From Escherichia coli (GTDB lineage: Bacteria; Pseudomonadota; Gammaproteobacteria; Enterobacterales; Enterobacteriaceae), in the NCBI RefSeq assembly GCF_003334405.1, contig NZ_QOWM01000018.1: 64,000 nt of DNA; one strand, given 5' to 3'. The notes below the pieces were generated by a model that saw only the letters and a list, made by a program, of their open reading frames with translations, ran no database searches and had not been told where the DNA came from. Position 1 is the first letter of the stretch; each line of letters begins with the position of its first letter. Below, one piece after another: positions 1,658 to 63,500 of the stretch. The position numbers and the translations under genes were made by a program.

Positions 1658-1690
1658 CCATCATGGATCGATTCGGCGCGGAGCGTTAAA
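1658..1690. repeat. ~30-bp repeat, copy 1 (second copy at 63466-63500)
   Basis: CATCATGGATCGATTCGGCGCGGAGCGTTAAAG versus CATCATGCCTGGATCGCTTCGGCGCGGAGCGTTAAG. Confidence 0.4.
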
Positions 1691-1895
1691 GATTACGCTC
1701 ATATTCGTTTTATGTCTGACGACACATCAACCAGCCAGTATCAGGAATAATCACCTTCAGTAAACTATGAGGCTATTTACCTGGCCACACTGGCATTTAT
1801 TTCCGGTAACGCAAGTATAGCCGGAAACAAACATCATCCTGTCTGTACCGGAGCACCGGTATATCCCATTCTGATTTAACTGCTCAGGAATTATT

Positions 1896-2354
1896 ATGAA
1901 CCGTATTATACCTGCGGGGTGTCTTGCCGCCCTTTTTCTGGCTGGCTGCAACTCCCCTTCTCAGCATACTCCTGTTCCGCGTAACTACGGTGCTGCCTCT
2001 GATGTGGCGGTTACCCGGCACACTCAGTACACATTATGGGACAAAGGTGTGTTTTCCGGTCAACTTCCGGTTTCAACGGGGTCTCATCTTCTGACAGCTA
2101 ACAGCGATCGCCTTTCCTTTGACTGGGAAGGTGATGCGATTGAATTACTGAACGAACTGGCCAGAGTCAGGGGGATGCAGTTTAACTACAATGGTGTCCG
2201 CCTGCCGTTACCAGTCAACCTTCACGTCCGGGATATGACGTTTTCCAATACGTTGAGACTTATTGAAGCCCAGACAGCCTGGAGAGCAACAATCCATCAA
2301 TATCCGGGCCTGTTACAGGTCAGCTTCATGCAGCCGGAGAACCGGAAAAAATGA
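1896..2354 (+). CDS. traH: T4BSS lipoprotein TraH (DotD-like)
   Basis: Lipobox LFLAGC; 152 aa; stop/start overlap with traI; gene order. Confidence 0.65.
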   Translation: MNRIIPAGCLAALFLAGCNSPSQHTPVPRNYGAASDVAVTRHTQYTLWDKGVFSGQLPVSTGSHLLTANSDRLSFDWEGDAIELLNELARVRGMQFNYNGVRLPLPVNLHVRDMTFSNTLRLIEAQTAWRATIHQYPGLLQVSFMQPENRKK

Positions 2355-3169
2355 AAGCACTCACCTCTCTCATTTTGCCAGTAATACTGCTTACTGGTTG
2401 TTCTTCTTCCCCCACCATCTCGCCAGGTGGTGTCAATACGCCACCACCTGACATTAATGCATGGCTTAAACCACGAAGTGAAAAGCCGGATAGTCTGTCA
2501 GAAACCCGCTGGAAAATGCTGACCGACGCGGGTAAAACGCTTGGATTTCGTGGTGGCAAGGCTCAGCGTTCATGGGAGCTGATTCAGGCACTCAACGCCC
2601 GGGAAAGCACACTTAATGCCTTATACGATTTCCGGCCACTGATTAGCCCGGAAGGCTGGCTACCACCGGTTATTGATGAAGCACAGGACGTTGCTCATAT
2701 CACGCCAGATCAAATCCGGACCTCTTCCCGGGTCTGGACCATCATTCGCCCTGAACGCTTTGTCAGCAATCCACCGGGCTGGCGTGACTGGCTTCTCCGG
2801 GGGCTTTCAACAACAGCCACTCCGGGTACAGAAGGCAGCGTCGTTCCAGAAGACAGCGTGCAACGAAAAGTGTGGGAAACCGCATTACGGCAGGGATGGC
2901 AGGAAGGAAGACAAAACGCCGACCTGACGCTTGAAGCCAACCAGAAAACCCTCACCCGTGATTACCGGGGCATGATGCTGTACTCACTTCTCTGGCGTCA
3001 GGGCATGATCACCCGTCCGGATGTTTCTGATCAAATGCAAACCGTTACAGGTGACGGGAAAAAACTGGTCACTGGAGATCGTGTTCGTCGCCTTAAAAAT
3101 CATGCGGAATTCAATCTTCAGAAATCTCACTGGCGTCCGCTTATAGGCACTGAAGGAGGCTCCCGATGA
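2351..3169 (+). CDS. traI: T4BSS lipoprotein TraI (DotC-like)
   Basis: Lipobox LLTGCSS; 272 aa; overlaps traH stop and traJ start. Confidence 0.65.
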   Translation: MKALTSLILPVILLTGCSSSPTISPGGVNTPPPDINAWLKPRSEKPDSLSETRWKMLTDAGKTLGFRGGKAQRSWELIQALNARESTLNALYDFRPLISPEGWLPPVIDEAQDVAHITPDQIRTSSRVWTIIRPERFVSNPPGWRDWLLRGLSTTATPGTEGSVVPEDSVQRKVWETALRQGWQEGRQNADLTLEANQKTLTRDYRGMMLYSLLWRQGMITRPDVSDQMQTVTGDGKKLVTGDRVRRLKNHAEFNLQKSHWRPLIGTEGGSR

Positions 3170-4314
3170 ATACTCCTGATGAGTTTGGTCTTTTTCCGTT
3201 TCAGCGTTTCACTGCAGATGAACTACGGCATTTCTTTGTCTGGTGTGCCGCACATAAAGTCAGTGATGTGGATCTGACCGGTGGGTCGCCCGTATCTGTC
3301 AGTCGCTTTGGCCGACGGGTGCGTTGTTCCAGTGCAACGTTACCAACCACACTCATGTCCTCCCTGATTGATGAACTGTTCGGTCGGGAAGTCATTCCCC
3401 GCGTTCTGGCAGGCAATCCGGTTGACAGGACGATACAGATTAACGGGGATGCATCCGGGCGCTATGGTCTTAAACGCGGAGAACGCATCCGGTTACGCTC
3501 TCACCTCATTCAGGGCACATCTGGTGCGGAGGAGAAAGCAATCTCAATAACCATGCGTGTCATCCCGACAGAAATACCGGACATTCTCTCCATGAATATT
3601 GAACCAGACCTGCTTGAAGCAATGGTCTGCAAAAGCGGTCTGGGATTTGTATGTGGTGAAACCGGGTCAGGAAAATCAACGCTGTGTTCAGCACTGTACC
3701 GTTACATTATGGACAATTTCCCCGACGCCAAAATCGTGACATATGAAGACCCGGTGGAATATATCCTGGGAAATGAAAACGATCTGCTCCCACCGCATCA
3801 GGCAGAAATCGGGCGTGATGTGGTCAGTTTTGCTGCCGGACTGCGTTCTGCTGTACGACGTAATCCCGAAATTATCGGTGTTGGTGAGATCAGGGATAAC
3901 GAAACCGCCGACGCAGCGGTACAGGCAGGCAACACCGGGCATTACTGCCTGAGCACCATGCATACGAAATCTCCTGGTGAAACGCTGGCACGTCTTCTTG
4001 GGCTGTTTCCCCCTGTCATCAGGGATTCGATGGCCTGGGCTGTCCTGTCACTGTTGCAGTTCATTCTGGTTCAGGTTCTGGTCAGAACAAATGACGGTGG
4101 TCGTAAAGCCGTCCGGGAATATATCGTCATTAACGATGAGCTTCGCGACAATCTTTCCGGAATGCCACATGCAGAGTGGGGGCATCACATTGATGCCATA
4201 ATCCGGCAGGAGAAGCGCCGTATCCGGGACCAGATTCTGGAAATGTATATCCGGAATGAAGTTGACCGAAGAGAAGCGATTCTTTTTATCCCACCAGGGG
4301 AGTTACGGTCATGA
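3166..4314 (+). CDS. traJ: T4BSS ATPase TraJ (DotB/PilT-like secretion NTPase)
   Basis: Walker A GETGSGKST; 382 aa; PilT/VirB11-like overall pattern. Confidence 0.85.
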   Translation: MNTPDEFGLFPFQRFTADELRHFFVWCAAHKVSDVDLTGGSPVSVSRFGRRVRCSSATLPTTLMSSLIDELFGREVIPRVLAGNPVDRTIQINGDASGRYGLKRGERIRLRSHLIQGTSGAEEKAISITMRVIPTEIPDILSMNIEPDLLEAMVCKSGLGFVCGETGSGKSTLCSALYRYIMDNFPDAKIVTYEDPVEYILGNENDLLPPHQAEIGRDVVSFAAGLRSAVRRNPEIIGVGEIRDNETADAAVQAGNTGHYCLSTMHTKSPGETLARLLGLFPPVIRDSMAWAVLSLLQFILVQVLVRTNDGGRKAVREYIVINDELRDNLSGMPHAEWGHHIDAIIRQEKRRIRDQILEMYIRNEVDRREAILFIPPGELRS

Positions 4315-61804: not shown

Positions 61805-62677
61805 TCAGGGTGAGGCTGTGGCCAGCCGTGTGTAGTTGTTGTTCCGCGACATTATCATGCGTTCCTTCACGCGACGGTCGATTTCGCGCTTCACGGCCTC
61901 CAGGCTTCCCCGGAAACGCCCTTCCGCGATTTCACGCGTCAGCTGCCGTTTCACCAGGGTGACAATGTCCTGACGGGTCCGGTCCGCATCACGGCGCGCA
62001 CGGGCACGTTTCATGCCGTGGGCCCTGCGCTCTGCCTGGTAACTGCGGAAACGCTCGCGCACAAAACGCCAGGCTCTCGCTATCAGTTCATCCATACCCA
62101 GCGCATCCAGCCCCTGCTTTTTGCGCAGCCTGTTTTCCCATTCCACGCGGCTGCGGCGTGCGGAAGCCACTGCCTCTTCTGAGATATCGAGAGAGGCAAA
62201 CAGTGCCGGCGTGAACGTGATGTCGGTCGGGATATTGCAGCCAATTGTCGGGTCGTATTCCGTCTGATAGGTCATCAGCCCCAGCTCTGCCAGGAACTTC
62301 AGGGCACGGGTGGCACGGGTGATGGAGAGCTTCCCGGCCTCAGACTCTGTCGCCAGACCGCACTCAATGGCCAGCGTGGTGATGGAGCACTGGACGCGGT
62401 TGGCCAGCGGGTCATAGTGGAAACACAGCCCCTGCAGCAGCGCATCAATCGCCCGGCGGCGCAGCACCGGCGGCATACGCCGGCGCAGGCCGCGCGAACG
62501 GGCATACGCCACATGCGCGGCAAAATCAAAACGGGAGGTGAAGCCCACGGCCTTTTCCATCAGTTTTTCGCAGAACTTCAGCGTTCCGGCATCTTCACGG
62601 GGTGTGAAGACCGGATTCGGGTTCTTTACCTGACGGTATGTACTTTCAGTAAATGAGGTCTGGTTCAGGGCCGCCAC
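61805..62677 (-). CDS. repA: Replication initiator, RepA1/RepZ family (IncFII / I-complex type)
   Basis: GTG start; conserved RepFIIA-type motifs [15 protein letters not shown]...[20 protein letters not shown]...LGMDELIA...; ends RLATASP. Confidence 0.85.
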
Positions 62678-62760
62678 AAGCTGTCGCTTATGGCGGAACG
62701 GTTGTGGCGTGCGTCTGGATTAACGCACATCACAGGGTTGAATCTCTGGTACGGTTTCAT
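62665..62760 (-). CDS. Leader peptide translationally coupled to repA (tap/RepY-like)
   Basis: 31-codon ORF whose stop lies 10 nt inside repA; arrangement typical of antisense-RNA-controlled RepA1/RepZ replicons. Confidence 0.45.
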
Positions 62761-63465
62761 TATACTTTCCCCGTATTCTGTGAGGCCCTCATAATCTTTC
62801 ACGCTTCCGCCAAGATGTCGAAAAAGATTATGGGGGTTTTCCTTTTATGGCTTCCGGAACATCTTCAGTCTTCTGACTTACTGCCCGTACATGCCATCTC
62901 TCCTGAATGCCTTATGGCGCATTCTGCCGTCCGGTTTTCGCCGCTTTGCTCCACAGAGTGCCACTTTCTGCACAGCTAATAACGGCAAAAATATACCTGC
63001 TTTACGTTAATTTGAAAAGCATTACAACGATCTCTTCTCTTCCATCGCCTCCTCATCGATACCCCTTATGGGTTAATCTTGACATGAATCAAAAAAATGA
63101 AATCTATTTTTAAAAGCAGATTTTTCTGCTTTAGATCCTTCTTTTGGATTAAAAGATCGACTTTCCCTCTACTCACGATCACTTATCCTACAACTGATCC
63201 ACCAAACAGAATAATATTCTGTTTTAACGCGATTAAACGATCTAAAAAACCTTTAAAAAATCATTTCGCAGATCATTCGATCGTAATTAGAATGATTCGT
63301 AGATGATAAAACCATTTGTTACACAACCCGCCAAGTGTGTAACAACAGCCACTACAAGAGCATATTTGTTCATATGTTCGTCAGAACTGCGGATTGTCTG
63401 GACGAGGGTCAGACACCGTTTCGTGCATATGGACCAGCATGTTCGAACGCCACAAAGCAGAAGCA

Positions 63466-63500
63466 TCATGCCTGGATCGCTTCGGCGCGGAGCGTTAAGT
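63466..63500. repeat. ~30-bp repeat, copy 2
   Basis: See copy 1; followed by a T-rich tract. Confidence 0.4.

Follow-up and report, generated by a model that had tools for sequence, protein, structure and literature searches.

The Escherichia coli contig NZ_QOWM01000018.1 (assembly GCF_003334405.1) provided a stretch of 64,000 nucleotides (nt), hereafter the window, which BLAST comparison with annotated plasmids identified as an I-complex (IncI1/K-type) conjugative plasmid and in which a short direct repeat stands in front of transfer (tra) genes. Here we show that this repeat belongs to a longer leader unit that folds as a sense-strand RNA consisting of two stem-loops, SL1 and SL2, and an invariant tail. 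Profile and covariance-model searches found exactly three copies of the leader per complete plasmid, all in sense orientation, and across the clade sampled the leader co-occurs with TraB, an RfaH-like protein. By analogy with known RfaH-type systems, we propose that the leader could be a cis-acting loading and antitermination site for TraB, a reading to which we give about an even chance.

A structured leader RNA in three copies

The initial annotation had pointed to a sequence of ~30 bp, repeated in direct orientation ~61.8 kb apart at both ends of the window, with both copies intergenic. Both sequences are indeed present on the + strand, as CATCCATCATGGATCGATTCGGCGCGGAGCGTTAA at 1655-1689 and CATCATGCCTGGATCGCTTCGGCGCGGAGCGTTAA at 63464-63498, 61,809 bp apart and 86% identical over 35 nt. 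Both are also intergenic, since copy A lies between a histidine-phosphatase gene and traH, and copy B has the repZ control region on one side and a C4-type antisense RNA, then traA, on the other. The location at the two ends of the window was given correctly but carries no significance. A third copy, directly before traB, falls between copies A and B on the circular plasmid; it is past the window end, at 1496-1641 of L003, and was seen in the near-identical plasmid CP088825.1. The repeat includes an exact 18-mer, TTCGGCGCGGAGCGTTAA, at 1672-1689 and 63481-63498 of the + strand, which with up to three mismatches has no other site on either strand of the window; 0.05 such sites were expected and none of 100 shuffles held two or more, which rules out a chance repeat. 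The extent of the repeat, however, had been underestimated, as pairwise alignment and an nhmmer profile extended the likeness ~110 nt further upstream and revealed the repeat to be the 3' end of a unit of ~147 nt. Scores from the covariance model R1, described below, are given together with the coordinates of the copies in the window:

1544-1690, + strand: copy A, the ~147-nt leader unit upstream of traH (nhmmer E 1.6e-44; R1 157 bits)
~1549-1635, + strand: SL1 of copy A
~1647-1678, + strand: SL2 of copy A
1665-1687, + strand: conserved block of copy A, GGATCGATTCGGCGCGGAGCGTT
1676-1687, + strand: invariant 12-mer of copy A, GCGCGGAGCGTT
63353-63499, + strand: copy B, the leader unit upstream of the C4 RNA and traA (nhmmer E 4.8e-44; R1 148 bits)
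~63358-63444, + strand: SL1 of copy B
~63457-63486, + strand: SL2 core of copy B
63485-63496, + strand: invariant 12-mer of copy B

We checked the motif for frequent occurrence across the genome and for poor conservation in related plasmids, and found neither. Among 5,426 complete E. coli genomes, 883 carry the 147-mer of copy B, and plasmids account for 895 of its 901 places; the copy A region is at least 95% identical in ~1,400 plasmid records. Together with the three copies per plasmid, this distribution rules out a generic or chromosomal repeat.

RNAfold gave a common + strand architecture for all three copies, in which SL1, a long imperfect hairpin of ~87 nt with a conserved apical loop, is followed by a linker, by the second hairpin, SL2, with the 3' arm GGATCGnTTnnGCG, and by the tail CGGAGCGUU. 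Copy A folds at -57.2 kcal/mol with z = -3.87 on the + strand versus -1.50 on the - strand, copy B at -50.5 kcal/mol with z = -2.42 versus -0.41, and the + strand fold of the traB copy has z = -3.5. In a MAFFT alignment of nine I1-like sequences RNAalifold predicted 41 pairs, 18 of them with compensatory changes, and an independent MAFFT alignment of eleven Citrobacter-type sequences yielded the same three helices; the Citrobacter-type apical hairpin (CAAAC-TTAAGT-GTTTG versus TCCGG-ACGAGGG-CCGGGA) covaries in its own right. We also built the covariance model R1 from the I1-like set and aligned 37 copies to it. Standard pairs filled 93.0% of the pair cells of this alignment, compared with 28-45% when the 3' partners were slid by 1-3 columns, and changes on both sides were seen in 26 of the 41 pairs, compared with 7-13 in the slid controls and a mean of 18.1 upon column shuffling, where none of 500 shuffles reached 26. 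The R1 alignment is fitted to the model and so favours the structure, whereas the MAFFT-based alignments are free of that bias. G-U pairs occur on the + strand only. A third small hairpin, GCGC-GGA-GCGU, is invariant, and covariation is uninformative on it because it never varies. A search of Rfam 15 found no family at gathering score on any of the three copies, the best match, to Guanidine-III, reaching 15.3 bits where the gathering score is 36.

All copies are on the coding strand, upstream of traH and the following genes, of traB-traC-pil, or of C4-traA, with promoter elements conserved just upstream. The elements flanking copies A and B are the following:

1527-1535, + strand: extended -10 promoter-like element of the traH unit, TGATATACT, ending 9 nt before the first conserved leader bases (ACAAGAG)
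1681-1700, + strand: terminator-like hairpin GAGCGT-TAAAGATT-ACGCTC and T-rich run from the terminator scan, with the leader tail as its 5' arm
1691-1895, + strand: untranslated spacer of 205 nt from leader A to the traH start codon (C 24.9% versus G 17.6%)
63265-63293, + strand: sigma-70-like promoter TTCGCA-N17-TAGAAT from the promoter scan, with two GATC (Dam) sites in its spacer
63489-63517, + strand: terminator-like hairpin GGAGCGTTAAGTTTTGACGCTTT and T-run, overlapping the tail of copy B, the hairpin extending to 63511

A consensus scan missed the extended -10 element of the traH unit because its -35 is weak; L004 and L021, two divergent traH copies, preserve the TATACT/TATAAT hexamer at the same distance of 9 nt, with unrelated bases in between. 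Before copy B, the block AGATCnnnCGATCG...TAGAAT is kept upstream of the traB-type copies in L120, L006, L014 and L017, and from this sequence conservation the promoter at 63265-63293 is probably the ancestral promoter of the traB-type leader. The terminator-like hairpin after copy A is not kept in L004 and L021, where there is only a T-rich tract, nor is that after copy B in L017 and L058, so that a conserved intrinsic terminator after the tail can be ruled out and the hairpins are lineage-specific. The spacer between leader A and traH is poorly conserved in alignment with L004 and L021, and its C-rich, G-poor composition would suit Rho loading. As a separate observation, sigma-70-like promoter matches are depleted in the tra block at 1700-21000, with 6 found versus 15.9 +/- 3.5 expected from shuffles, a depletion that fits long transcription units served by few promoters.

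Three explanations had been offered for the repeat, a shared regulatory RNA motif, a recombination site or the footprint of a duplicated gene end. The first is supported, as the repeat is part of an RNA that folds on the sense strand with strong covariation and stands where the transcription units of transfer genes begin. The other two fall within a broader alternative in which the conserved element acts as DNA, which would also embrace the binding of a regulator of double-stranded DNA, TraA for example, or a switch based on Dam methylation. A GATC and a near-palindrome, GGATCGATTC, are found in the invariant block; GGATC is unchanged in nearly every copy, and part of it is conserved though unpaired in L005; two further GATC sites lie in the upstream promoter spacer, and TraA is a helix-turn-helix protein of the LuxR/sigma-70 region 4 type. 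With two GATC sites in the promoter spacer and an invariant one in the leader, Dam-methylation-sensitive expression is conceivable. However, the compensatory changes, the restriction of G-U pairs to the + strand and the strand asymmetry of folding point to RNA, and the near-palindrome is lost in the Citrobacter-type copies (GGATCAATTC). A recombination site finds no counterpart in inverted repeats, target duplications, flanking repeats or an associated recombinase; what is conserved is base-paired RNA, and all copies have one orientation and the same gene contexts. Nor do the copies look like a duplicated gene end, since they show no coding similarity and the unit stands upstream of genes, not at their ends. 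We therefore regard a DNA-level element as very improbable; at most, a DNA site could coexist with the RNA function of the leader.

Association of the leader with traB

To follow the leader beyond the I1 lineage we collected divergent traB loci from plasmid records, from one-per-species genomes, from metagenomes by motif scan, and from contigs with more distant TraB proteins. Among 171 nhmmer hits the first identifiable downstream feature was TraB in 66, TraH in 54, C4/traA in 43 and TraC in one, with none or too short a sequence in the remaining seven. The distance from the unit end was within a few nt for the TraB start codon, ~180-270 nt for TraH and ~190 nt for the C4 RNA. Six of 120 metagenome motif matches were chance matches in high-GC DNA and were not recognised by the profile. 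Down to ~50% identity, all traB homologs sampled together with their upstream sequence have the full unit directly before the start codon, among them those of Citrobacter, Enterobacter, Salmonella diarizonae, Pectobacterium, Yersinia ruckeri and Edwardsiella tarda, where TraB is ~50-65% identical, and in a Klebsiella plasmid with a TraB of 47% identity there is a weak partial match before traB. In a relative with TraB at 41% identity SL2 and the tail (GGATCG...GCGGAGC) are still found before the ATG, and in another, at 36% identity, an SL1-like hairpin lies further upstream. Because divergent plasmids keep the unit before traB and, in those whose traH region was examined, have no traH copy, we take the traB leader to be the ancestral position. 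The block AGATCnnnCGATCG...TAGAAT is common to copy B and to the single traB copies of traA-less plasmids, which suggests that the leader was duplicated in the I1 lineage; the sequences suggest a duplication upon insertion of the C4-traA module, plus another copy placed at the separate traH promoter.

The most conserved part of the unit across all lineages, GGATC(G/A)nTTnnGCGCG(G/A)AGCGTT, comprises the 3' arm of SL2 and the tail that follows it. For most lineages sampled, 4-8 nt separate the end of the invariant 12-mer from the start codon in the traB copies, and GGAG or GAAG, 9-12 nt before the start codon, is usable as the traB Shine-Dalgarno sequence. Copies A and B keep the identical tail at ~200 nt from the traH ATG and ~340 nt from the traA ATG, and a conserved small open reading frame after either copy was ruled out, as frames and lengths differ between lineages. 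The tail must thus have a function beyond traB translation. We also looked for covariation between TraB residues (R-x-HSAF) and the GGAG/GAAG variants of the tail, but the pattern was not clean and was confounded by phylogeny.

These findings bear on an alternative in which the leader works independently of TraB, as a structured 5' untranslated region (UTR) for translation or mRNA stability that was duplicated to co-regulate traB, traA and traH, acting by sequestration of the Shine-Dalgarno sequence, as an RNA thermometer, or as the target of a trans-acting small RNA with Hfq or a FinO/ProQ-family protein. Such a post-transcriptional role would agree with a structure that is clearly RNA, with the GGAG/GAAG at Shine-Dalgarno distance in every traB copy and with the alternative hairpin GCGC-GGA-GCGU, which could modulate access to it. 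It would also agree with the unpublished effects of hfq on traA and traBC expression mentioned by Poidevin et al. (PMC5801416), with the temperature dependence of pESI transfer (PMC5013300), and with the gene for a FinO/ProQ-family protein that lies beside rep in all these plasmids. But a translational operator cannot explain copies A and B, because they are distant from start codons and are not followed by a conserved small open reading frame. In addition, no complement of the 18-mer exists elsewhere in the window on either strand, and no tra leader is among the top FopA ligands from RNA immunoprecipitation sequencing that are named in the text examined (PMC7491321), which comprise Inc, repZ and chromosomal RNAs. 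On balance we find a TraB-independent post-transcriptional leader unlikely. The C4 RNA was ruled out as an antisense RNA of the leader, their match being only 6 nt long (GTCATC).

Candidate function in loading of TraB

TraB and TraC have been known since 1993 as essential activators of IncI1 transfer, and to our knowledge their site of action has never been identified. Both are essential positive regulators of transfer (PMC4288162, PMC10286972), TraB being required for pil transcription (PMC5013300) and for transfer itself (PMC4288162). TraB is annotated as a NusG-family protein and matches the NCBIfam RfaH model TIGR01955 over its full length (residues 11-167; E 7.7e-11); as the score is below the equivalog cut-off, it is an RfaH paralog, not RfaH itself. 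The closest solved sequence is that of PrfaH (ActX) from IncX3 (9ik0; E 1e-11), of which R64 TraB has been named a homolog (PMC11880322). An AlphaFold model of TraB consists of an NGN domain and an all-helical C-terminus, with a predicted local distance difference test score of 76.5 (~88 for NGN, 56-74 for the C-terminus), and its best structural matches are RfaH with ops DNA (5ond) and autoinhibited RfaH on the ops-paused complex (8pfg, 8pib), over ~159 columns; by this model, TraB is predicted to be autoinhibited like RfaH. PrfaH is an antiterminator whose site is a small non-template-strand hairpin in its own 5' UTR, 25-42 nt before the ATG (PMC11880322).

By analogy, the ~150-nt leader at the head of the transfer-regulon units C4/traA, traB and traH could load TraB onto RNA polymerase. 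SL2 would serve as a pause hairpin, with the polymerase pausing ~10-12 nt after it and exposing GCGCGGAGCGTT in the non-template strand so that it might fold, as ops does, into a small GC hairpin that has a GGA loop. TraB would be recruited to the paused polymerase at the exposed GCGCGGAGCGTT, and the TraB-loaded polymerase would resist termination, whether intrinsic or Rho-dependent, all along the untranslated spacer and the pil/tra operons of several kilobases. The traB copy would, in addition, supply the traB Shine-Dalgarno sequence (GGAG) and positive autoregulation, as has been shown experimentally for PrfaH in IncX3. A loading site is favoured most strongly by the presence of a separate copy at each independently promoted unit, even where the tail is far from the start codon; a traH copy would have been gained in the I1 lineage because the traH promoter is separate and each such unit would need a copy of its own. 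The tail is also compatible with this proposal, as GCGCGGAGCGTT matches ops (GGCGGTAGCGTG) at 7 of 12 positions, with GnAGCGT common to both, and could form a GC hairpin of 3-4 bp with a three-base loop, recalling the non-template-strand hairpins of ops and the PrfaH site.

Several points weigh against a TraB loading site. Conserved RNA helices are no feature of RfaH recruitment, and with 150 nt, including a conserved block of 23 nt, the unit greatly exceeds the ~12 nt of an ops-type site in the transcription bubble. The ops consensus with at most one mismatch was found neither in nor near copies A or B, the window holding 4 such matches in total versus 3.2 by chance, and the IncX3 PrfaH leader (L138) gave no significant R1 match with filters off, the best being 8.8 bits on the wrong strand. 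For TraC, the essential partner, neither Pfam nor NCBIfam gave a match, and no structural match was convincing. The association with TraB could merely reflect that the unit is the 5' UTR of traB itself, and part of the invariance of the tail may be translational, as it doubles as the ribosome-binding region in the traB copies. Among the divergent plasmids whose traH region was examined, those of Citrobacter and Klebsiella, no leader copy precedes traH; the terminator-like hairpins that follow copies A and B have no conserved counterparts in divergent plasmids, and the transcription starts are read from sequence.

Comparison with known systems places the leader nearest to three of them. The RfaH-ops system, with its JUMPStart leaders in E. 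coli lipopolysaccharide, capsule, hly and F tra operons, is alike in having a specialised NusG paralog as partner and a short conserved sense signal in the promoter-proximal 5' leader of long horizontally acquired operons, one per unit, as well as in the possible small GC hairpin and GnAGCGT. Unlike ops, however, the leader has no ops consensus and is ~150 nt long with two covariation-supported helices, which ops lacks, and TraB is plasmid-encoded and needs a second essential protein, TraC. PrfaH (ActX) of IncX3 activates a conjugation operon and has its site in its own 5' UTR, some tens of nt ahead of the start codon (PMC11880322), but the sites are dissimilar, the 18-nt TCGGGGTCATCCGAGTCG in PrfaH versus GCGCGGAGCGTT in the leader, and R1 gives no significant match to the IncX3 leader; there is a single site in IncX but three copies in the I1 lineage, and no large structured RNA has been described for IncX. 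A GTCATCC 7-mer common to the leader and the PrfaH site is too short to count. By description, the leader can also be likened to lambda nut, HK022 put and pLS20 conAn2 (PMC8191782), which are transcribed stem-loop leaders just downstream of promoters. They act in cis, making RNA polymerase terminator-resistant, in the case of conAn2 for a conjugation operon, and nutL/nutR and putL/putR occur, like the leader, in more than one copy per replicon; they differ in that the factor here is RfaH-type and not N, Q or ConAn1, and in that antitermination by the leader is a proposal only. No sequence resemblance was seen between the leader unit and lambda boxA. Our literature search found the leader, its three copies, its structure and the loop of the upstream hairpin described below undescribed, the 12-mer appearing only inside a polymerase chain reaction primer.

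SL0, replication control and the Hft locus

An additional hairpin, SL0, lies directly upstream of copy B. The features concerned, together with the loop of SL0 in other lineages, are the following:

63316-63345, + strand: SL0, a 10-bp hairpin (TTGTTACACA / TGTGTAACAA) with the loop ACCCGCCAAG
SL0 loop of the Citrobacter type: TTGCCGCCAATT
SL0 loop of Yersinia / Edwardsiella: ACCGCCAAG
62690-62844, - strand: PK-repZ, the repZ pseudoknot (Rfam)
62807-62813, - strand: loop motif UUGGCGG of stem-loop I in repZ mRNA, which Inc RNA is known to target and which is a candidate partner of the SL0 loop

Equivalents of SL0 stand before essentially every traB-type copy and are absent before traH copies. 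Their stems differ between lineages and covary, while the loop always holds CCGCC(A). By a strict criterion, a CCGCC-type motif is located in a hairpin loop in 12 of 16 leaders versus 1.4 expected from shuffled flanks, a figure that is indicative only, as the sequences are related. The stem-loop I loop of repZ mRNA, encoded on the - strand, carries CUUGGCGG, which can pair with the SL0 loop ACCCGCCAAG over 8 nt, as also in L140 and L141. Inc RNA is the exact complement of repZ stem-loop I, and its loop therefore has CCGCCAAG, the same 8-mer as SL0; 5'-rUUGGCG-3' appears as a target-loop motif in the title of Asano et al. 1998, as cited in PMC7491321. A matched change is seen in a Klebsiella plasmid (L008), where the rep loop is UUUGGCGAC and the SL0 loop GUCGCCA. 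The correspondence is imperfect in L058, with the loop CCCACCAAA, and in L121 and L144, with CCGGCC. SL0 thus resembles Inc RNA/CopA-type antisense RNAs in that a hairpin presents 5'-CCGCCAAG-3', complementary to a 5'-UUGGCG-3' loop, but it differs from them in that it is not antisense to the rep leader, lies ~500 nt from stem-loop I (~62800-62830), has an unrelated stem and is part of a tra leader.

From this complementarity, a loop-loop contact between the tra leader and repZ mRNA appears plausible. Going further, the traB/traA leader transcript might kiss repZ stem-loop I via SL0 and so make the tra leader a two-way link of replication control and transfer, a proposal that we offer tentatively and hold to be rather less probable than its converse. 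Three further resemblances in this region were set aside. A pseudoknot between the SL0 loop (CGCC) and a GGCG in the tail was ruled out, as it would have only 4 bp and GGCG is missing from many traB-copy tails; the likeness of the copy A tail to repZ stem-loop I, both of which contain GCGTnAAAGATTA, was dismissed as lineage-specific; and GGCGGAAGCGTG, part of the repZ stem-loop I loop region at 62800-62811 (- strand), agrees with the RfaH ops consensus in 11 of 12 positions but was judged a chance match, one of the 4 in the window versus 3.2 expected, and is not kept in stem-loop I of other plasmids.

SL0 also enters into an alternative in which copy A, copy B or both would be self-contained genes for small RNAs, comprising promoter, structured RNA and intrinsic terminator, and would act in trans either as decoys that titrate a factor binding the traB leader or, via SL0, by mimicking the Inc antisense RNA. 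This plasmid has a terminator-like hairpin with a T-run after each copy, and before copy B come promoter-like elements and SL0 with the loop of Inc RNA; transposon insertions just downstream raised copy number ~two-fold with repZ mRNA unchanged (PMC4288162). The terminator hairpins, however, are not conserved in divergent copies, and the orientation is always that of the downstream operon. Moreover, the leader must be part of an mRNA, because in most lineages the sole copy is fused directly to the traB start codon. Small-RNA genes are therefore, in our judgement, distinctly improbable.

The DNA between copy B and traA proved to match a published locus, and its features are given here together with the genes flanking copy A:

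63545-63814, + strand: 'Hft' region, starting 46 nt after copy B and corresponding to pESBL-EA11 35394-35663 at 98.5% identity (BLAST)
63558-63610, + strand: c4-a1b1 target motif (Rfam, 32.9 bits, below gathering score)
63697-63784, + strand: C4-type antisense RNA (Rfam C4, 77.6 bits)
63818-63839, + strand: traA Shine-Dalgarno region and start codon
917-1501: histidine-phosphatase gene, the 5' neighbour of copy A
1896-2354: traH, the 3' neighbour of copy A and start of the traH-to-traY block

Hft is the published 270-bp 'high-frequency transfer' super-spreader locus of pESBL-EA11, whose disruption raised traA::lacZ expression 50-fold, with activating insertions distributed at two ends (PMC4288162, PMC5801416). 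We found that it consists of a c4-a1b1-like target motif and a C4-type antisense RNA of the P1 type, and that the C4 loop CCGAUGAC has its complement in GTCATCGG, a stretch that includes part of the traA Shine-Dalgarno sequence (63818-63827). Disruption of an antisense repressor resembling P1 immI would explain both the 50-fold rise in expression and the two-ended distribution of insertions, and on this sequence likeness the C4-type antisense RNA probably accounts for Hft. No paper linking Hft to a C4 antisense RNA was found in the literature searched.

Other RNA and repeat features of the window were recorded in passing. A sok/pnd antitoxin RNA lies at 25526-25683 (Rfam RF01794, 134 bits). 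Adjoining it inside the transfer region is a match to an AgrB-type antisense RNA at 24814-24901 (RF02891, 58.5 bits), with a partial tandem duplicate 187 nt upstream (24626-24658 / 24813-24845). Downstream of oriT, in the leading region, a GC-rich repeat of ~290 nt that has inverted repeats within it occurs three times (35069-35362, 37929-38217 and 44273-44567; 82-93% identity), alongside a pair of 300-nt repeats at 99% identity (39086-39385 / 46040-46339); these are probably single-strand-promoter (Frpo/ssi-type) repeats as known from leading regions.

I-complex plasmids (IncI1, K, B/O and Z) are major carriers of ESBL (extended-spectrum beta-lactamase) as well as AmpC resistance genes. For TraB and TraC, the activators of their transfer, the three leaders with a 12-nt invariant core and two covariation-supported helices provide a defined, mutable candidate target, and the Hft locus, previously left unexplained, can now be read as a C4-type antisense RNA with a leader next to it. 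If SL0 does link replication control and transfer in both directions, transcription of the transfer genes would lower the synthesis of RepZ, or else the leader would be opened by free repZ mRNA and TraB thereby turned on. Since repZ mRNA is plentiful at low levels of Inc RNA, for instance in a plasmid that has just entered a cell, such a link could underlie the transitory derepression of transfer in new transconjugants, and it could also explain the two-fold rise in copy number of Hft insertion mutants. If loading of TraB at the leader is confirmed, the I-complex plasmids would harbour an RfaH-family system whose signal includes a large structured RNA.

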